A stretch of 64,000 bases of DNA, taken from Candidatus Levybacteria bacterium GW2011_GWA1_37_16. GTDB lineage: Bacteria > Patescibacteriota > Microgenomatia > Levybacterales > UBA12049. The notes under the pieces were generated by a model that had not been told where the DNA came from, ran no database searches, and worked only from the letters and a program-made list of their open reading frames with translations. The translations under genes were made by a program, and so were the position numbers. This document shows, piece by piece, positions 2,146-60,962 of the stretch (the first letter of the stretch is position 1; every line of letters starts with the position of its first letter). The stretch lies in the NCBI GenBank assembly GCA_943357985.1, contig CALRGR010000002.1, forward strand, positions 306-64,305, read 5' to 3'.

Positions 2146-3873
2146 TCAGTTTAGTTCTATATTATACAACGGACCAACAATTTGTATATTAGCAGGCGCT
2201 CTAAGGTTAAAGTATGTCTTAAAGAAGCTTCCTGAAAATGCTGGATCGGGGGCGTTCCCGCTAATATGAACTGCTGAAACTTTTCCGCTGCCCCAGTCTA
2301 CGTCTACACTAATTCCCGATACGGAATTAAACGGAGTAATTCCTCTATTGCTTAATTCTTGTTTTATTTTTCCGGCATCCCATGTGTCTGTTCCAGCCGG
2401 ATTTGGTTTATCCGTTTGATATAAGTGTTCGTTAATAGATGAATCTACTGAAGCAAGCTTTACAACATTTGCAATATCTGCCATTTCGGTGGCAGTAAGC
2501 CAGGCTGTTCCTCCATAAGAACTTCTTGAGCCCCAGTCGCAATAAAACCAAGGAGAATCTCTGTCATATGCATTGTTTTTTAGATCTGAAAAACTAGAGA
2601 CGTCTCCTGACGTGTCTCGAGCATTCTTAGTCCATGAAGTCCCGTTCCATCCGATATCTCCTGATGAATGAATGTATCCTCCGTGGGTTGAAGAGAACCA
2701 TGCTTTAATAGGGCTTCCTCCTTGAACCATTACTTTTCCCGCTGTATCATTGACTGCTTTCTCCCAATTTCCTCCCTTAGGGTCTGGCTTAAAAACCTGA
2801 CATTGTTCGGTTGTGCAAATAGAGCCAGAACCATTATTTGTATATGCTAAGGCATAACTTCTTGCGGCAATCGCCTGGGCTTTTAACGCTTCCATGCCAT
2901 CCTGATCTCCCCATGAATCTGGAACTTCATAAATACGCTTCACATATTCATCCAAAGAATAACTACTGTATCCCTGTACATTTATTTGCGCATCTCTTAC
3001 TTCTATTGAATCAAAGTTATAATAAGCTCTAAGAATTTCTTCATAACCTTGTTTTGCTTTTGCTCTCCCCCATGCTCCGTACTGATTAAGACCAACTCTG
3101 TTTGGGACTCCATATGTAAATAGTCCAAATCCTCCGCTGAATCCTGCGCTTTTACCGTTTGTTAAGTCGCTTGAGCAACTTCCTCCCGAGCTTGCAAAAA
3201 GAGGAATTCCAAGACTTGAAAGTCTTTGGGCTAAGATTTGCTGCTGGCGTGCAGATAAAGATGCGATTTGGCTTGAAAGGGTACTTTGGTAGGCAAGGGA
3301 ATCGGCGACTACTTTGTCCAATTTTACTTTTACAGCTGCAAGGCCTATTTTTTCTGCTTCCAAATCCTTTTTTTGGACCTGAAGTTCTCTTACTAAAATT
3401 GCAGCATTTGTGATAAGCGCTTTATTTTGGTCTATGCTTACTTGTTGATATGCCCTAATTTTAGTGAAGTCAGATATTGAAGGACTTAGAAGGAGCTCAC
3501 AGAATGGACAATCTCCCTGAGTTGCTATGTACAATTTTCTTATAGCATCATTTAAAACTTCCATTAATTTTACCAATCTTGCCTCCCCGTCTGATATTTG
3601 TTTTTGTTTTATCGGAATATCATTTTCTATTTGGGCTACTCTTGCTCTTATGCCGTCGACTTGTTTTTTAACTCCTGCTGTTGCCGCAACAGACTGATTT
3701 TTTGCCCGGGTTAAATTGCCGATGCAATCGCTTAGTTCGCTTGGATTCATGTCTTTTACGGCGTTTGGATCGGCGCATCTACTGTTTTGGGCAAGTGTGG
3801 GAACAAAAACATTTAAAAAGAGTACAAATGCTAAGAAAATGCTCGTTAAGAAGATTGGTAAAAGCTTTTTCAT
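2146..3873 (-). CDS. Secreted SpoIID/LytB-domain protein with an N-terminal coiled-coil region
   Basis: Signal/TM N-terminus, a long coiled-coil, and the SpoIID/LytB signature ...EALKAQAIAARSYALAYT.... Confidence 0.75.
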   Translation of the reverse strand: MKKLLPIFLTSIFLAFVLFLNVFVPTLAQNSRCADPNAVKDMNPSELSDCIGNLTRAKNQSVAATAGVKKQVDGIRARVAQIENDIPIKQKQISDGEARLVKLMEVLNDAIRKLYIATQGDCPFCELLLSPSISDFTKIRAYQQVSIDQNKALITNAAILVRELQVQKKDLEAEKIGLAAVKVKLDKVVADSLAYQSTLSSQIASLSARQQQILAQRLSSLGIPLFASSGGSCSSDLTNGKSAGFSGGFGLFTYGVPNRVGLNQYGAWGRAKAKQGYEEILRAYYNFDSIEVRDAQINVQGYSSYSLDEYVKRIYEVPDSWGDQDGMEALKAQAIAARSYALAYTNNGSGSICTTEQCQVFKPDPKGGNWEKAVNDTAGKVMVQGGSPIKAWFSSTHGGYIHSSGDIGWNGTSWTKNARDTSGDVSSFSDLKNNAYDRDSPWFYCDWGSRSSYGGTAWLTATEMADIANVVKLASVDSSINEHLYQTDKPNPAGTDTWDAGKIKQELSNRGITPFNSVSGISVDVDWGSGKVSAVHISGNAPDPAFSGSFFKTYFNLRAPANIQIVGPLYNIELN

Positions 3874-3948: not shown

Positions 3949-4542
3949 ATGGAAGGTTTAACTTTTGAACAAACACCTTCTGCCCCAATAGGATCTCCTA
4001 AAAGAAATGCAAAGAGATTTTTTTACCTTTTAGCCACAATTGTCGTAATTGGACTTTTGCTTTTTGGAGGATTTAAACTTTTTGGAGGAAGCAATAAATC
4101 CGCAACATCAGAAATAACTCCTACTCCAACAGAATTTATAACGGAAACTCCATTTCCAACTGAGTCAACAACACCAACACCAACATCAACGCCAACAGCA
4201 ACAAAGACTCCTACTCCAACAGTTAAGGCAAATCCGGTAGATAGTGCAACCGGACTTGATAGAAGTACATTGGATGTTTCCATTCAAAATGGAAGTGGGG
4301 AAACGGGAGTCGCCAAGACTGCATCGGATTACCTTTCCGGCCTTGGATATAATATTGTGTCAACCGGAAATGCAGCAACGACAAATTTTACAAACATAAC
4401 CATTCAGGTAAAAAGCACTACAAAGAGCGGTTTTCTCACTCTTCTTAAAAACGACCTGTCCGCAAAATATACAGTTGGAACCACTTCTTCGGATCTATCT
4501 GCAAGTTCCTCGACTGATGCATTGGTTGTTATTGGAAAATAG
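3949..4542 (+). CDS. LytR_C-domain protein with an N-terminal TM helix and a Thr/Pro-rich linker
   Basis: TM helix, then the TPTPT-repeat linker TPTPTEFITETPFPTESTTPTPTSTPTATKTPTPT, then LDRSTLDVSIQNGSGETGVAKTASDYLSGLGYNI (LytR_C). Confidence 0.6.
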   Translation: MEGLTFEQTPSAPIGSPKRNAKRFFYLLATIVVIGLLLFGGFKLFGGSNKSATSEITPTPTEFITETPFPTESTTPTPTSTPTATKTPTPTVKANPVDSATGLDRSTLDVSIQNGSGETGVAKTASDYLSGLGYNIVSTGNAATTNFTNITIQVKSTTKSGFLTLLKNDLSAKYTVGTTSSDLSASSSTDALVVIGK

Positions 4543-5489: not shown

Positions 5490-5938
5490 AGGTTTATTTA
5501 GCATCAGATCATGCAGGGCTCGAACTTAAAGATAAGATAAAGATTTATCTTGAAGGAGCAGAATATGAGGTAGTTGACTGTGGAGCTTTTGATTTTGATA
5601 AGGATGACGACTATCCAGATTTTATAACAGCCGCTGCAGAGAAAGTTTCCAAGGACGAAGGCTCTCTTGGAATTGTTTTGGGAAAATCAGGGGCAGGGGA
5701 GGCAATTGTTGCAAATAAAATAAAAGGCATCCGCGCAGTTTTAGGTTTTAATAGGGAAAATATTTTACTTGCAAGGACTCACAATGATGCAAATGTTTTG
5801 TCTTTGGGGTCTGCTTTTGTAAATGAGGAAGAGGCAAGAGAGTTGGTAAAGTTATTTTTAGAAACACCATTTTCGGGTGACGAAAGACACAAGAGAAGAA
5901 TAGAAAAGATTACCGAGCTAGAGCGAGTGTCATCCTGA
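5486..5938 (+). CDS. rpiB: Ribose-5-phosphate isomerase B (RpiB/LacAB family)
   Basis: MKVYLASDHAGLELK... is a typical RpiB N-terminus; ~150 aa. Confidence 0.85.
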   Translation: MKVYLASDHAGLELKDKIKIYLEGAEYEVVDCGAFDFDKDDDYPDFITAAAEKVSKDEGSLGIVLGKSGAGEAIVANKIKGIRAVLGFNRENILLARTHNDANVLSLGSAFVNEEEARELVKLFLETPFSGDERHKRRIEKITELERVSS

Positions 5939-6009: not shown

Positions 6010-6645
6010 ATGGAGATTATTCCCGGAATTTTAGAAAAAGATTGGTCTGAAATTGAAAAAAAGATAGAGCTTGTCCGTCCATTTGCAAATACTATTCATA
6101 TAGATATTATTGACGGCAAATTTGCTCCTAATACTACTTTTTTGGACCCGGCTCCTTTTAAAAAATATACAAGTCCTTCGGCGGGCTCAGGATTATTTTT
6201 TGAACTTCATATGATGGTAGAAGACCCGATTTCGTATCTGGATAAGTGGGCAGAGGCAGGTTTTGGGAGATTTTTAGGTCATATTGAGAAAATGACGGAT
6301 CAAGTAGAATTTGTTGCAAAAGCGCAGCTGCTCGGCGAGGTAGGGTTAGCAATAGACATGAAAACTCAGATAGAAGAAATAAAAGTGCCGTTTGAAGATT
6401 TAGATAGCATGCTTCTTATGTCTGTTAATGCCGGATTTTCAGGGCAAAAGTTTAACCCAGCGGTTATAGAAAAAATAAAAGAAGTCACGGACAAAACATT
6501 TATTCCAATTGAAGTTGACGGCGGAATAAACGATTCAAACATCTTTGATATTAAGCAAGCGGGAGTATTAAGCTGTGTTTCCACAGGTTTTATTTTTGGC
6601 GGAAACCCACAGGATCAATACAAGAAACTCCAAAGTTTATCTTAA
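6010..6645 (+). CDS. rpe: Ribulose-phosphate 3-epimerase
   Basis: IHIDIIDGKFAPN...LHMMVEDP...VDGGIN motifs. Confidence 0.85.
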   Translation: MEIIPGILEKDWSEIEKKIELVRPFANTIHIDIIDGKFAPNTTFLDPAPFKKYTSPSAGSGLFFELHMMVEDPISYLDKWAEAGFGRFLGHIEKMTDQVEFVAKAQLLGEVGLAIDMKTQIEEIKVPFEDLDSMLLMSVNAGFSGQKFNPAVIEKIKEVTDKTFIPIEVDGGINDSNIFDIKQAGVLSCVSTGFIFGGNPQDQYKKLQSLS

Positions 6646-55685: not shown

Positions 55686-55985
55686 GTGAGTGAAATCGAA
55701 TCTATGAAGACGGTTAAACAAATTCTAGAAAACTTTTCGCCTGTTGAGGATAAATATATTTCCCGTGAATTTCAGTCCTTTGGTATCTATTTGGCAGAAC
55801 AGCTTGATGATTATAAGCATAGAGCGCTTTTTATAAAATTGGCAAAGACTGTTCATCGTTCAATTTTAGAAAAAGCTCTTTCTTTTGCCGTAGACAGCAA
55901 TGCAAGAAATAAAGGTGCACTTTTCATGTGGAAGCTTAAGGAATTTAAAGAGGTGGTAAAAGGCAAACAAAATGTTAAAAAATAA
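55686..55985 (+). CDS. Hypothetical protein
   Basis: ORF track only. Confidence 0.3.
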   Translation: MSEIESMKTVKQILENFSPVEDKYISREFQSFGIYLAEQLDDYKHRALFIKLAKTVHRSILEKALSFAVDSNARNKGALFMWKLKEFKEVVKGKQNVKK

Positions 55986-56493
55986 ATATACTCTCTATTT
56001 TCTCACCTTTGGCTCTTCAATACTCTTGATTATCCTTACTTTTTTATTTCAGGATAAACTTATTCATCTAAAAACGTGGGGAATATTGGGAGTATTTCTC
56101 ATCAATTTTTTCTCAACCGCTACTCTTTTTGTGCCTAACTTTTCCCTTGTAACAGTTATAGCGGGTGGGTCAGTTTACAATCCAATCTTGGTTGCTATTG
56201 TGGCAACTTTGGGAGGAGTTTTGGGGGACTCAACTAGTTATTTATTGGGGCATAGTGGTAAACATATATTTGTAAGGCATGAAAGTGAATTGTTCCAAAA
56301 AGTAGTGCGCGTTTTTGATAGACATGGATTAATTGTTATTTTTGCTCTTGCGCTTATTCCAAATCCTATCTTTGATGCAATTGGAATTATGGCTGGAAGT
56401 ACTGGTTATAATTTCAAGAGATATATGGTAGCTATGTTTGCAGGAAGAATTATAAGAAACCTACTTCTTGCTTATGTCGGTAAGGCTCTATGA
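55972..56493 (+). CDS. DedA/TVP38-family membrane protein
   Basis: Polytopic; ...GGVLGDSTSYLLGHSGK... motif. Confidence 0.6.
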   Translation: MLKNKYTLYFLTFGSSILLIILTFLFQDKLIHLKTWGILGVFLINFFSTATLFVPNFSLVTVIAGGSVYNPILVAIVATLGGVLGDSTSYLLGHSGKHIFVRHESELFQKVVRVFDRHGLIVIFALALIPNPIFDAIGIMAGSTGYNFKRYMVAMFAGRIIRNLLLAYVGKAL

Positions 56494-56551
56494 CACATTC
56501 GATACATTCGATAAAGCTCAGGGTCTTCGTCACCAAGTCAGACTTGGCTCC

Positions 56552-56580
56552 TTGACAAATGCAACTTAGTTGCATATAAT
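56552..56580 (+). promoter_or_regulatory. Consensus sigma70 promoter (TTGACA-17 nt-TATAAT) whose spacer is a perfect 17-bp palindrome ATGCAACTtAGTTGCAT; candidate Zur/Fur operator
   Basis: TTGACA at 56552-57; palindrome at 56559-75; TATAAT at 56575-80; ATG 7 nt downstream. Confidence 0.65.
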
Positions 56581-56587
56581 CATTAAG

Positions 56588-56971
56588 ATGAACTCAATTA
56601 GCAGAACACCGGCAAGAGCTACTATTGTTGAATTTCTATCCAAATCCTATTCTCCCGTAGACGTTTCTCAGATTGTTAATTTCTTAAGGGCAAAAAATTT
56701 AAGTACAAATAAAGTAACCGTTTACAGAGTCATGGACTTTCTTTTAGAAAAAGGTTTTATAGATAAGGTTGAGTTTAGAGAAGGGAAGTTTAGATACGAA
56801 ATCAAAAGAGATGACCACCACCACTTTATTTGCCAAAACTGTGATGTAGTAGAGGACATTTCGGATTGTAATATTTCTGTGCTTGTTGAGGAAATCCAAA
56901 AAAAGAAAGGCATTCTAATTAAAAAACATTCTTTGGAGTTTTTTGGAATATGCAAGAATTGTCAACTTTAG
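56588..56971 (+). CDS. zur: Fur-family metalloregulator (probably Zur); start moved to the ATG at 56588 (leaderless)
   Basis: wHTH, HHHF, CQNC...CKNC metal sites; followed by zupT. The TTG start in the ORF track lies upstream of the -10 box. Confidence 0.75.
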   Translation: MNSISRTPARATIVEFLSKSYSPVDVSQIVNFLRAKNLSTNKVTVYRVMDFLLEKGFIDKVEFREGKFRYEIKRDDHHHFICQNCDVVEDISDCNISVLVEEIQKKKGILIKKHSLEFFGICKNCQL

Positions 56972-57705
56972 TTAACATATTACTGGCGACTTTTATGGGC
57001 AGCATAGCCGCTCTTATTGGCGGAATTATTCTTTTATCCAAGGAAAAGTTAGCCCTAAAAATTTCTCATTTTCTAGCTTCATTTGCAGCCGGAATACTGC
57101 TTGGTACCGCATTCTTTGATCTTCTTCCTGAGGCATTGCATGGGGGTGGGGAAGATGTGCTATTCTGGACGCTTTTTGGAATTATATTGTTCTTTCTAAT
57201 TGAAAGATTTATTCATTGGTTTCACCATCATGAACAGTTTGAAGGAGAAAGAGAATCAAAAACCACACTGCCGCTTATAGTAATTGGAGATACTGTGCAT
57301 AATTTTATTGACGGAGTTGTTATTGCTGCAACTTTTATGACAAGTCCGGCTCTTGGAATTGCAACTACGCTTGCCGTATTTGCTCATGAGATGCCGCAGG
57401 AAATAGGAGATTTTGGGTTAATGTTGCATAAGGGAATGGCAAGAAGAAAGATAATCATAGTTAACATAGCAAGCGCCGTAATATCATTTGCAGGCGCTAT
57501 CTTAACTTTTCTACTAGGGAATTTTCTTGAGCCTTATATACCAGTACTTCTGGCAATTACAGCAGGATTTTTTATCTATATTGCTTCTTCTGATTTAATT
57601 CCTGAGATTCATTATGAAAAGAGACACGGATTTGCCGCAGTCGAAAGTCTTCTTCTGGTCTTGGGAGTTGTTATTATGTGGATTGTTGCTTCAGCGATTA
57701 TTTAA
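56950..57705 (+). CDS. zupT: ZIP-family zinc transporter
   Basis: HNFIDGVVIAA...AHEMPQEIGDF motifs; 8 TM helices. Confidence 0.85.
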   Translation: MQELSTLVNILLATFMGSIAALIGGIILLSKEKLALKISHFLASFAAGILLGTAFFDLLPEALHGGGEDVLFWTLFGIILFFLIERFIHWFHHHEQFEGERESKTTLPLIVIGDTVHNFIDGVVIAATFMTSPALGIATTLAVFAHEMPQEIGDFGLMLHKGMARRKIIIVNIASAVISFAGAILTFLLGNFLEPYIPVLLAITAGFFIYIASSDLIPEIHYEKRHGFAAVESLLLVLGVVIMWIVASAII

Positions 57706-58489
57706 GAAGTTTATCGATGGCTGCTGTTATAGATTCTTTAGGTTGAGCTCCAACTATTGCCTCTCCTTTTCCATCCCGATCTATTATAAAGCTTGTTGGT
57801 GTGCCAGTTACTCCTGCTGCCGAGCCTTCCGCAAACTGATCCTGAACTTTTTTAGTGTACTTTCCAGTATCAAGACAGCTTTGGAAGGATTGCTGATTGA
57901 CTCCTACTTCTGCTGCCAAAGGTCCTAGTTTATCTAGAGCAAATCCTGTTCCGTTTGAAGTAGTTCTTTCAAATAACTTGTCAATAAAATTCCAAAAGGA
58001 ATCATTTCCGCCTAACTCCGCAACGCATTCTGAGGCTTCTGCTTCTTTTTGTGCATTTGCATGAAATGAGAGAGGATAGTGTCTGTATACAAGCTTTACC
58101 TTGTCTGGGTAAGTTTTTAATATGTCATTTACGTTTGGGTGGAAAGTTTTGCAGAAAGGACACTCTAGGTCCGAATATTCAATTATAGCCACTTTTGCAT
58201 CCTTATTTCCTCTTATATGGTCACTGTCGGAAATCGGTTTTACTTTATCTACAGCCAATGTGGGAGCAGCTCTTGGGGGAGCGGCTTGAGGAACGGCTTG
58301 TCCAACAGCTGTTCCAATTGTAGCGCCTTTTTTAAGATATTCAACTTGGCTTGAAAGTCTTCCCAGGAAAAAAGATGCAATAAGAAGAAGAACCATAAGA
58401 ACGGGAAGGTAGGAAGTGTTTTTCAAAGAGAGTTTTGGAACTCTGATACTATAACTTTCTGAACTTTTTGAGGAAGCTTTTGTTACCAT
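57698..58489 (-). CDS. DsbA-like thiol:disulfide oxidoreductase (membrane-anchored, CPFC active site)
   Basis: N-terminal TM helix; thioredoxin fold with CPFC. Confidence 0.7.
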   Translation of the reverse strand: MVTKASSKSSESYSIRVPKLSLKNTSYLPVLMVLLLIASFFLGRLSSQVEYLKKGATIGTAVGQAVPQAAPPRAAPTLAVDKVKPISDSDHIRGNKDAKVAIIEYSDLECPFCKTFHPNVNDILKTYPDKVKLVYRHYPLSFHANAQKEAEASECVAELGGNDSFWNFIDKLFERTTSNGTGFALDKLGPLAAEVGVNQQSFQSCLDTGKYTKKVQDQFAEGSAAGVTGTPTSFIIDRDGKGEAIVGAQPKESITAAIDKLLK

Positions 58490-58555
58490 AGGAATATCTT
58501 ATTCTAAAGATTTGGCAAAAGGATTGTCAAGCCCCAAACTGTCTGCACAATTGAG

Positions 58556-58720
58556 TCAAGAGGTAGGTTTCACTTTTCCATGTGTTGATTTCTGTGTTCT
58601 GCTAGTCTCATTTTGCTTTTTTGTCACAAAGCACTCTTTAAGAGACTTAAATGATATTACTTCATGAAAATTTATAGGCATTGGCCATGATTCTAAAAAT
58701 GCTCCCGATGTTTTATTCAT
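58556..58720 (-). CDS. Unannotated small ORF (~54 aa) with a strong RBS (AAAGGAGGTGA-atc-ATG) upstream of the DsbA gene
   Basis: Read from the minus strand: MNKTSGAFLESWPMPINFHEVISFKSLKECFVTKKQNETSRTQKSTHGKVKPTS; below the ORF-track length cutoff. Confidence 0.3.
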   Translation of the reverse strand: MNKTSGAFLESWPMPINFHEVISFKSLKECFVTKKQNETSRTQKSTHGKVKPTS

Positions 58721-58847
58721 GATTCACCTCCTTTCATAAGATGATTTTAAGACGATATGTAAATAGTTACAGTGATGTTTATTACTAAAAATTTGTGAGA
58801 TTTTTAACAATTATTGATTAATTGCTTTTATTGTTCTAGAATTAGGA

Positions 58848-59504
58848 TTGGTGGACAGAGAAGAATCCTCTAGGAAAATTATAGATTTCTTCGAGAATTT
58901 TCGCCTTTTACATTATAAAAAGGGTGAAATAATACTGCGTCCTTTTGAAACGCCTCAAGGAGTTTTTTATCTAAAAAGCGGTTATGTTAGGCTCTATTCA
59001 GTGTCAGAAGATGGTCAAGAACTTTCTCTGATAATCTTCAAGCCTGGAGATTTTTTTCCTGTGATTTGGCTTATAAATAACACACAAAATGAGTATTACG
59101 TAGATTCACTTACTTCTTCATCTTTGCTTCTTGTACCAAAAGATAAATTTCTGCAGTTTATACATAGAGATAAAGACATATTATTTGAGTTAACATCAAG
59201 GGCTCTTACCCGTCTTGGGGGACTTTTGGAAAGAATGAATTATCTGGTTTACGGTAATGCCGGCCAAAAGCTTGCTTCAATAATTTTAATTCTAGTAGAG
59301 CGTTTTGGAGAGAAAAAAGGAAAAGAGATAGAGATACCAATTTCAATGACGCATAAAGACATAGCAGCGCTCCTTGGCGTAGCCAGGGAAACCGTAAGCA
59401 TAGAACTTAAAAAATTGGAAAGAAAGGGCCTAATAGAAATCAAAAATAGACATCTAATTGTCAAAAAGAAAGAGTTACTTGAGAAAGAAGCTTTATTGTC
59501 TTAA
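58848..59504 (+). CDS. Crp/Fnr-family transcriptional regulator
   Basis: cNMP-binding beta-barrel plus C-terminal HTH (HKDIAALLGVARETVSIELKKLERKG). Confidence 0.75.
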   Translation: MVDREESSRKIIDFFENFRLLHYKKGEIILRPFETPQGVFYLKSGYVRLYSVSEDGQELSLIIFKPGDFFPVIWLINNTQNEYYVDSLTSSSLLLVPKDKFLQFIHRDKDILFELTSRALTRLGGLLERMNYLVYGNAGQKLASIILILVERFGEKKGKEIEIPISMTHKDIAALLGVARETVSIELKKLERKGLIEIKNRHLIVKKKELLEKEALLS

Positions 59505-59510
59505 GTCTAA

Positions 59511-60161
59511 TTACTTAAGGAGAGCATCAATTTTGCTTTTTAGGTCATTGAAAGAGGCAAGTCCCGTTACTTTCTCCCCGTTTAAATAAAAGGTGGGGGT
59601 AGAATTAACTCCAAGACTAACTCCATCATTTATGTCTGCCTTAATTTTGTCTGAATATTTATTTCCTTCTACATCATTTTTGAATTTATCGGTGTCAAGC
59701 CCAATGCTTTTTGCATATTCGGTAAACATGTCAAGTGGGTTACTACTGCTACTCCATGCGCTTTGGTTTTCAAATAGCATATCGTGCATCTGCCAATATT
59801 TTCCTTGCGCGCCGGCTGCCTCTGCAGCCTCTGCTGCAATTTTAGAATTTTGGTGTATTGATAAAGGGAAGTTTCTGTATACAAATAAAACTTTATCTTT
59901 GTAATCATTTATTATCTGTTTTATTATTGGATAAGCTGCGCCGCAAGCTGGACATTGGTAGTCGCTAAATTCAACAAGTGTGACTTTTGCTGACGCGCTC
60001 CCCAGTTTATCACTGTCGCTTCTGAATAAAATTTTAGGATCTGCTTTTGTAGTAGAAGTTATTGGAGTAGACGTGTTACCGCTTAAAAGAACTACTGCTC
60101 CAACAAGGATTGCAATAGCTACTGCTCCAACTCCCAAAAGTATTTTTGCTTCTTGTTTCAT
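59511..60161 (-). CDS. DsbA-like thiol:disulfide oxidoreductase (CPAC active site), second paralog
   Basis: Signal/TM N-terminus; YQCPACG. Confidence 0.75.
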   Translation of the reverse strand: MKQEAKILLGVGAVAIAILVGAVVLLSGNTSTPITSTTKADPKILFRSDSDKLGSASAKVTLVEFSDYQCPACGAAYPIIKQIINDYKDKVLFVYRNFPLSIHQNSKIAAEAAEAAGAQGKYWQMHDMLFENQSAWSSSSNPLDMFTEYAKSIGLDTDKFKNDVEGNKYSDKIKADINDGVSLGVNSTPTFYLNGEKVTGLASFNDLKSKIDALLK

Positions 60162-60631
60162 TTTGTTTTTTTCTTAAGCACTAAAACCATGCAAAAAGTT
60201 ATTATAGCAAAAGAAATAAAAGAGAGAAGGGGAATTGTTACAAATCCAAAAAGTTCAAGCTGTTTTTGTGTGCAAGAAGCGCCAATCGTGCAGGGACTTA
60301 TTGTTTCCGGAATTAAACCGTAATATAAAAGGTTATGATAGGAAGCAACAATTAGCCCCCCGATACTTAAAGGAAGAGCGTAAAACGGCATGTTTTTATC
60401 TTTTCTTAAAATTCCAACTGCTATTACTACCACAAGCGGAAACATAAGTGCGCGCTGGTACCAGCATAATTCGCATGGAGGAAAATGTAGAAACCTACTC
60501 ATAAATAGACTTCCTAAAGTTGCAAGAAGTGCTTGTGTCCAGGCTACATAAGAAAATGTTTTCACAAATGATAGTATAGCAAAAATATCATTGACAGGAA
60601 CTCTTCTTGTTTGGTATTCTAAAACTCTCAT
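60158..60631 (-). CDS. Disulfide bond formation protein DsbB-like; start uncertain (taken at MRVLEY)
   Basis: PPCELCWYQR resembles E. coli DsbB CVLCIYER; 4 TM helices; ATGA overlap with dsbA. Confidence 0.6.
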   Translation of the reverse strand: MRVLEYQTRRVPVNDIFAILSFVKTFSYVAWTQALLATLGSLFMSRFLHFPPCELCWYQRALMFPLVVVIAVGILRKDKNMPFYALPLSIGGLIVASYHNLLYYGLIPETISPCTIGASCTQKQLELFGFVTIPLLSFISFAIITFCMVLVLKKKTK

Positions 60632-60641
60632 AAATAAAAAT

Positions 60642-60962
60642 ATGTCGGATATTATATTTACAGATAACAATTTTGAACAAGAGGTGTTGAAATCCGATAC
60701 TCCTGTTCTTGTTGATTTTTGGGCCCCTTGGTGCGCTCCTTGCAGCATTGTTACCCCAATTGTTGAAGAGTTGGCAAAAGAATATGAAGGCAAAATAAAA
60801 ATATGCAAAGTTAATGTTGATGAAAATCCTAAGGCTGCTCAGAACTTTTCTGTCATGAGTATTCCAACTGTTATTCTATTCAAAGCAGGAAAACCGGGAA
60901 AGACAATAATTGGTGCACAAAGCAAAGATAACTACAAAAAGGCAATTGAAGAATTGCTCTAA
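60642..60962 (+). CDS. trxA: Thioredoxin
   Basis: MSDIIFTDNNFEQEVL...VDFWAPWCAPC (WCxPC). Confidence 0.85.
   Translation: MSDIIFTDNNFEQEVLKSDTPVLVDFWAPWCAPCSIVTPIVEELAKEYEGKIKICKVNVDENPKAAQNFSVMSIPTVILFKAGKPGKTIIGAQSKDNYKKAIEELL

Follow-up and report, generated by a model that had tools for sequence, protein, structure and literature searches.

How a member of the Patescibacteria might switch the uptake of a metal on and off is the question raised by a short intergenic region of Candidatus Levybacteria bacterium GW2011_GWA1_37_16. The region lies in a 64,000-nucleotide stretch of contig CALRGR010000002.1, which we refer to as the window; in it, a palindrome is embedded in a promoter that precedes a gene for a Fur-family regulator and a gene for a ZIP-family metal importer. 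From comparisons of sequence, we assign a probability of about 0.8 to the locus being a leaderless, autoregulated operon of the Zur type, comprising a Fur-family repressor and a ZIP importer whose metal is probably zinc. We regard it as a new instance of a known autoregulated metal-uptake operon, not as a new kind of system. The elements on which this reading is built are the following, in window coordinates.

56552–56557, + strand: −35 hexamer TTGACA, a perfect consensus, found directly before the operator in most orthologous loci
56559–56575, no strand: predicted operator ATGCAACTtAGTTGCAT, a perfect 17-bp palindrome filling the promoter spacer
56575–56580, + strand: −10 hexamer TATAAT, a perfect consensus, with TATAAT or TATACT at the equivalent place in orthologues
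56587–56590, + strand: predicted transcription start (G 56587 or A 56588) and start codon ATG (56588–56590)
56588–56971, + strand: gene for a Fur-family metalloregulator of 127 residues (PF01475), Zur-like by context
56950–57705, + strand: gene for a ZIP-family divalent-metal importer of 251 residues (PF02535, E = 7e-43), the second gene of the operon

The promoter occupies the intergenic region between a gene of the VTT/DedA type (55972–56493) and the Fur-family gene. The original prediction had described perfect TTGACA and TATAAT hexamers 17 nt apart, with a palindrome that fills the spacer and overlaps the −10 by one base, and the sequence bears this out: the hexamers stand at 56552–57 and 56575–80, the spacer runs from 56558 to 56574, and the palindrome, which reads ATGCAACT-t-AGTTGCAT as a perfect 8-1-8 repeat over 56559–56575, shares its last T with the first base of the −10 (56575). 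Counted from the predicted transcription start, the palindrome spans about −29 to −13. A complete 12/12 match to the sigma-70 consensus occurs only here in the window, for which shuffled sequences give an expectation of 0.05.

Whether this palindrome is an operator was judged from other genomes. Relatives' loci were fetched by protein similarity alone, with one genome per species, which gave 57 loci, about 42 of them from Patescibacteria and mainly from Levyibacteriota. Some 35 of 40 patescibacterial upstream regions read TTGACAa-ATGCAA-N5-TTGCAT-ATAAT/ATACT and so carry the site at the equivalent promoter position. Across the loci the half-sites are kept around a central N5 that varies, as do the flanks. 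For the family the consensus reads aTGCAA-N5-TTGCAt, which in the subgroup containing the window is extended inward to ATGCAAC-N3-GTTGCAT (7-3-7). G3C4 and G14C15 are present in 52–53 of the 53 site instances used for position weights, a figure that is partly circular because these instances were picked with at most two mismatches. When one mismatch at most was allowed, 37 sites fell within the 10 kb that cover −200 to +30 of the regulator start and 12 within the other 484 kb, a 147-fold higher density next to the regulator; most of the 12 distant sites lie in promoter–operator modules of this type that precede other genes. In many loci the stretch from the −10 to the ATG holds a second copy of the operator, 23–24 nt downstream of the first; these tandem copies indicate that the motif is an independent unit, more than a promoter spacer that happens to be conserved. 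In the window itself the site is single. In three of the two-operator loci, a motif TTGATCTTG(A/T)A stands just after the second operator (L011 ~5850–5870, L028 ~3992–4005, L034 ~3855–3870), without a match in Rfam; an Rfam scan of the leader RNA after the operators in five related loci likewise returned no family.

We next consider where the operon mRNA begins. Gene callers chose ATG 56588 on public contigs, which carry the window regulator protein with gene order and start codon unchanged, and this start is required by the conserved N-terminal TPAR motif (residues 7–10). The TTG at 56570 was rejected as a start codon: it falls within the spacer of the promoter, and homologue N-termini as well as the gene callers favour ATG 56588. 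Seven nucleotides (cattaag) separate the −10 from this ATG, and no Shine–Dalgarno sequence precedes it. The corresponding distance is 6–8 nt in all 14 single-operator orthologous loci (with ATG, once GTG, as start codon), so that transcription would be expected to start on the A of the AUG or 1 nt before it. The operon mRNA is therefore likely to be leaderless or to have a 1-nt leader, in agreement with the leaderless start originally proposed.

Leaderless mRNAs are common in Actinobacteria and Deinococcus-Thermus, and the phage lambda cI mRNA is another example; the present locus resembles them in having a −10 that ends 6–8 nt before the start codon and in having no Shine–Dalgarno sequence. 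The two-operator relatives depart from this geometry, with a leader of ~20 nt that is the second operator, and still have no Shine–Dalgarno sequence. In a rough count over 57 long open reading frames (ORFs) of the window, with uncurated starts and no formal control, TAnnnT stood 5–8 nt before the first start codon in 18 and a Shine–Dalgarno-like sequence was present in six, which hints that leaderless or Shine–Dalgarno-less initiation is common in this genome.

The first gene product matches PF01475 over profile positions 6–120 of 121 (E = 2.3e-24, 86 bits against a cut-off of 23). Its gene overlaps the ZIP gene by 22 nt, and a GGAG lies 11 nt upstream of the ZIP ATG, at 56935–56938. The second gene had been called zupT; this name is too specific, since the ZIP protein scores 61 bits with the NCBIfam ZupT equivalog and the cut-off is 252.

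We conclude that the window site is very probably the operator of the regulator encoded behind it, as originally suggested. Besides the enrichment next to the regulator gene, this assignment draws on the recognition helix. In the window regulator the helix reads N41-K42-V43-T44-V45-Y46-R47, whereas the solved Fur, PerR and Zur proteins that we aligned have (G/S)(L/I/V)(A/S/T)(T/S)VY(R/N). Among the patescibacterial loci retrieved by protein, C at box position 7 or G at position 11 is found in 36 of 54 half-sites when the helix carries R or K, against 12 of 94 when P, Q, S or E takes the R/K position (Fisher p = 2e-11, which overstates the co-variation because the lineages are not independent). 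Such a pattern is what would be expected from direct read-out by the R/K residue, and it links the site with the Fur-family regulator and not with some other factor.

The association extends beyond Patescibacteria. A scan of metagenome contigs for the exact box ATGCAAC-N3-GTTGCAT gave at least 120 contigs. Among the 120 matches listed, a Fur-family ORF lies within 0.8 kb of the box in 25, which range from 26% to 70% GC, with the box on the 5′ side of the ORF in 20 of these; the other 460 kb of the same contigs contain one Fur-family ORF only. The box-associated Fur proteins with a readable helix, again among the matches listed, mostly have [D/N]-[R/K]-[V/T]-T-x-[Y/F]-R. The box adjoins ZIP genes in contigs L061 and L093 and genes for ZnuA-type binding proteins in L122 and L127. 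In L073 its neighbours are a divergent COG0523/CobW GTPase gene and a GTP cyclohydrolase II-like gene, and in L132 they are genes for a TonB-dependent receptor and a COG0523 protein. Contig L142 (59% GC) has a complete box-znuA-znuC-znuB-fur operon, in which ZnuA is His-rich. By genomic association, then, the box accompanies genes for zinc acquisition (ZIP, ZnuA, znuABC, COG0523, TonB-dependent receptor). In two high-GC contigs (L101 ~900–925, L109 ~6535–6560) the box that precedes the Fur-family gene is followed by a second, AT-rich palindrome AAATGAAATTGAAATTCATTTTCAA; this resembles a classical Fur/Zur-type box, and such promoters would thus seem to hold two different Fur-family sites.

A similar picture was obtained from the genes that follow the regulator in the relatives. 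Among 42 homologue loci scanned, a ZIP gene stands directly behind the regulator in 24; in most of the others the regulator is followed by genes for a ZnuA-family binding protein, an ATP-binding cassette (ABC) ATPase and one or two ABC-3 permeases. In three loci (L009, L010, L039) a two-operator promoter directly precedes the binding-protein gene, and the same module also precedes several uncharacterised genes in the relatives. One class of the binding proteins has His-His-His ligands and no Asp at the fourth position, with a His/Glu-rich loop in L022 and L042, and from its ligands we take it to be the zinc type. E. coli ZnuA and PsaA served as references for the ligand alignment, the N-terminal part of PsaA agreeing with the structure-search alignment.

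A gene for a YibE/F-family membrane protein (PF07907), absent from the window, is present in 19 of the 42 homologue loci and is mostly divergent from the regulator promoter. Its start is then only ~40–80 nt from the operator; loci with this upstream, divergent gene include L004, L006, L011, L015, L017, L019, L023, L025, L026, L028, L030–L032 and L034. The protein may be a co-regulated metal transporter. We found no functional literature on YibE/F apart from one fitness hit in S. aureus.

Homologues of the regulator itself numbered 407, and the source-named ones, like the genome loci, are almost all from Patescibacteria. The Cys4 structural zinc site (C82, C85, C122, C125) is invariant in 120 of 120 homologues, and its CxxC pairs align with those of PerR, HpFur and M. 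tuberculosis Zur (MtZur). Candidate sensing ligands, also invariant in the family, are E71, H77, H78, H79, D90, H114 and E117. The MtZur residues D62, H81, H83 and H118 align with D59, H77, H79 and H114 of the regulator, D59 being present in only 48 of 120 homologues. An N-terminal extension, which the window protein does not have, was seen in 31 of the 120; in 21 of these it carries an H-[DNS]-C motif, typically HDCK, that might add metal ligands.

On these grounds zinc is the likely sensed metal: the His3 and His-rich ZnuA-type proteins, the neighbours of the box in other phyla, and a match, described below, to a Zur box predicted in Desulfovibrio all point to it. We propose the following mechanism. 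When metal is plentiful, a metal-loaded repressor dimer, with zinc as the likeliest metal, would sit on the palindrome ATGCAACTtAGTTGCAT. Because the palindrome takes up the whole spacer and touches the −10, binding would exclude RNA polymerase, shutting off the importer and, by negative autoregulation, the repressor itself. When metal is scarce the repressor would depart and the consensus promoter fire; the leaderless mRNA, beginning at the AUG or 1 nt before it, would be translated, and the ZIP gene would be expressed by way of the gene overlap and a GGAG of its own. What the sequences themselves show is the anatomy of the region, an operator kept at this place in the promoter and enriched beside the regulator gene, the joint variation of protein and site, and the kinds of gene that share the module in relatives; that the repressor binds and represses, which metal it senses and where transcription starts are what we infer. 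Occlusion of the promoter by a metal-loaded dimer, which the original prediction had also put forward, is read from the geometry of the site (−29 to −13) and from established knowledge of the family, and conservation of the site inside the promoter spacer is consistent with it.

Several observations weigh against this reading, some concerning the site and others the metal. Taken alone, the palindrome is no more than chance would give in the window: one perfect 8-1-8 palindrome was observed, and about two are expected in 64 kb from Markov-1 simulations. Promoter-like matches in general are no commoner than in shuffles. One could therefore see in the palindrome no regulatory element but a product of chance, or a structure such as a hairpin or a terminator, in AT-rich intergenic DNA. 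We find this scarcely credible, because what makes the palindrome significant is where it sits, exactly within a perfect promoter, and its conservation: half-sites are kept around a variable centre at one promoter position in dozens of genomes, and relatives have tandem second copies. As a structural element it would also be ill placed, since transcription is predicted to start downstream of it, which would leave it out of the RNA, and no T-run comes after it. The original prediction had looked to further copies near metal genes as support, and none was found in the 64 kb with up to three mismatches (0.48 expected); the 6-5-6 core with up to two mismatches has three other matches in the window, all within coding regions, which we take as chance. 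With a single site in 64 kb, a regulon in the window genome could not be shown. It might also be argued that the palindrome belongs to another factor, for instance the Crp/Fnr-type protein encoded 2.3 kb downstream (58848–59504), that its link to Fur is a shared neighbourhood, and that it was assigned to the Fur-family protein on sequence grounds. This is very improbable: the site tracks a Fur-family gene across differing neighbours, phyla and GC contents of 26–70%, it is the Fur-family helix that co-varies with box positions 7 and 11, and the Crp/Fnr sites (TGTGA-N6-TCACA, TTGAT-N4-ATCAA) do not fit.

The choice of zinc is made less secure by the regulator's own relationships and by its candidate sensing site. 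The regulator matches 23 solved Fur-family chains, among which Fur and then PerR structures score above Zur, with Nur far weaker. None of the NCBIfam equivalogs for Fur, Zur and PerR reached its cut-off; the Zur model NF008646 gave 62 bits against a cut-off of 167, and the PerR and Fur models scored higher, below their own cut-offs. Zur proteins usually carry a sensing-site cysteine, and in MtZur, the one Zur aligned here, the sensing site reportedly consists of D62, C76, H81 and H83, an Asp/Cys/His/His type. C76 falls in an alignment gap adjoining the invariant E71, and only N/O ligands, the pattern of Fur and PerR, make up the candidate site of the window regulator. ZIP transporters, moreover, are broad in substrate and not zinc-specific, and a second class of binding proteins in the relatives has His-His-Glu ligands of a manganese/iron-like kind, its nearest solved relatives being Mn/Fe binding proteins.

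With no cysteine in the candidate sensing site, the sensed metal could differ from zinc. Architecture and autoregulation would then be unchanged, and a Mur-, Fur- or Nur-like regulator would sense manganese, iron or nickel, with transporters that import that metal. A site of E71, H77, H79 and D90 would suit such a regulator, and the core TGCAA-N5/7-TTGCA, in its 6-5-6 form, is like the Nur box (PMC2691836). We nevertheless consider this alternative unlikely. The other binding-protein class has His3 ligands, no Asp and His-rich loops; in other phyla the box adjoins COG0523 genes, His-loop ZnuA genes and TonB-dependent receptor genes, the hallmark members of Zur regulons; the box is identical to the predicted Desulfovibrio Zur box; and nik, sodF/sodN, siderophore or iron genes were not seen near any of the sites. 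Nur, furthermore, is the weakest of the solved relatives (3eyy, E = 1.6e-6). Of the original proposal of a Zur operon, then, the regulon (ZIP, His3 ZnuA-type, COG0523) and the Desulfovibrio box speak for the Zur assignment; zinc itself stays an assignment from context, and no cysteine aligns where MtZur has its C76.

The closest precedent for the Zur-type reading is in Desulfovibrio. In two genomes of that genus, the 17-bp palindrome ATGCAACNNNGTTGCAT in front of znuABC-zur was predicted to be the Zur site (Rodionov et al. 2004, Genome Biol 5:R90; PMC545781), and the window site ATGCAACttaGTTGCAT matches it at 14 of 14 specified positions. In both cases the box goes with a Fur-family gene that has zinc-uptake genes linked to it. 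The Desulfovibrio Zur_D site is itself a computational prediction, and we found nothing specific in the literature on experimental work with this Zur. The arrangements differ in that the Desulfovibrio regulator comes last, after znuABC, whereas here it comes first and is paired with a ZIP gene. The operon of L142 has the Desulfovibrio arrangement, and its regulator shares with that of the window a helix of the same signature (N-R-V-T-V-Y-R) and an S-P-V motif in place of the classical Fur histidine. At 25% identity to the window protein it is no close orthologue, and the His cluster before CxxC reads HPAHPHFH in L142 against DDHHH in the window regulator.

Classical Zur proteins, such as those of B. 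subtilis, M. tuberculosis (FurB), E. coli and S. coelicolor, repress zinc importers through promoter-overlapping operators. The window regulator has in common with them the Fur-family fold and the Cys4 structural zinc site. It differs from them in having an alignment gap at the sensing cysteine of MtZur, and its recognition helix has N-K-V-T-V-Y-R where MtZur has G-L-T-T-V-Y-R. The sole palindrome in the promoter is GC-cored, and the N5 centre of the family is unconserved. The classical Zur operator is AT-rich, of the n-1-n type (TAAATCGTAATnATTACGATTTA, quoted in PMC545781), and the classical AT-rich Fur/Zur/PerR 7-1-7 boxes (TGATAATnATTATCA, TCGTAATnATTACGA) are not matched by the window site, whose core is the GC-type TGCAAC. 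The remark in the original prediction that the operator is unlike classical boxes holds to that extent, but the site is not without precedent, given the 2004 Desulfovibrio box and its Nur-like core. The Nur box of Streptomyces coelicolor is tTGCaa-N5-ttGCAA (An et al. 2009; PMC2691836), and it shares with the family consensus the 6-5-6 layout, the TGCAA core and the unconserved centre, the box of the window subgroup being extended inward to 7-3-7. Nur controls sodF and nik genes, none of which is present at this locus, and has a nickel-specific site.

A broader proposal can be made, which we put forward tentatively and think may well prove wrong: the regulator might belong to an unrecognised Fur-family specificity class that spans phyla, defined by a [D/N]-[R/K]-V-T-x-[Y/F]-R helix, by a proline replacing the histidine ligand of the DNA-binding domain, and by the box ATGCAAC-N3-GTTGCAT.

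Among the uncharacterised genes that follow the promoter–operator module in the relatives is one for a conserved protein of ~55 residues (MxFYNVKTRQ...DG.NLFK) with no Pfam family, which is a candidate new regulon member. It lies directly behind the two-operator promoter in L019, L026 and L024, with a Shine–Dalgarno sequence, and is the second gene behind it in L022. The other genes behind the module encode a 621-residue protein with a His-rich N-terminus (MTEHTHHHEQHH) and no Pfam family, a CbiA/MinD/CooC-like P-loop nucleoside triphosphatase (NTPase), a 103-residue protein with an HExxH motif and a 342-residue protein without a family. The loci are:

L019 5675–5851; L026 5686–5847; L022 3877–4041; L024 855–1022; also L034 and L040: the ~55-residue protein
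L028 4032–5897; L034 3930–4805; L022 3569–3880 and 4226–5254: other genes behind the promoter–operator module

Upstream of the −35 in the window, a 9-mer ACATTCGAT is repeated twice in tandem (56495–56512), and a 7-1-7 palindrome, CCAAGTC-a-GACTTGG, lies at 56533–56547, with no T-run after it; the region 56495–56547 is identical in three contigs of the same species. Locus L023 has an inverted repeat GGAGATTT-aa-AAATCTCC directly before its −35, following a shared sequence GGGTCTTCGTC. A weak terminator of the upstream gene and another binding site are both possibilities for these repeats. Directly downstream of the operon (57698–60808) are two genes for DsbA-like thioredoxin-fold proteins, one DsbB-like gene and the Crp/Fnr-family regulator gene. 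One of the DsbA-like genes (57698–58489, − strand) has an 11/12 promoter match at 58530–58501 and shares 8 nt with the end of the ZIP gene.

The Patescibacteria (candidate phyla radiation) are uncultured, and to our knowledge almost none of their regulators or promoters have been characterised. The operon described here offers a concrete and readily testable case of transcriptional metal control in this group. It suggests that Patescibacteria use textbook sigma-70 promoters, that some of their transcripts, at the least, are probably leaderless, and that they use a type of Fur-family operator that had until now only been predicted, in Desulfovibrio. Should the specificity class proposed above be real, the R/K residue of the helix would read box positions 7 and 11, and the regulator would be a main metal regulator in Patescibacteria, with a regulon that includes the YibE/F, 55-residue MxFYNVKTRQ, His-rich 621-residue and MinD/CooC-like NTPase proteins; these uncharacterised proteins could then be new parts of metal acquisition or metal sparing. 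For Fur-family proteins in general, a simple hypothesis of how specificity arises can be drawn from the way in which helix and box vary together.

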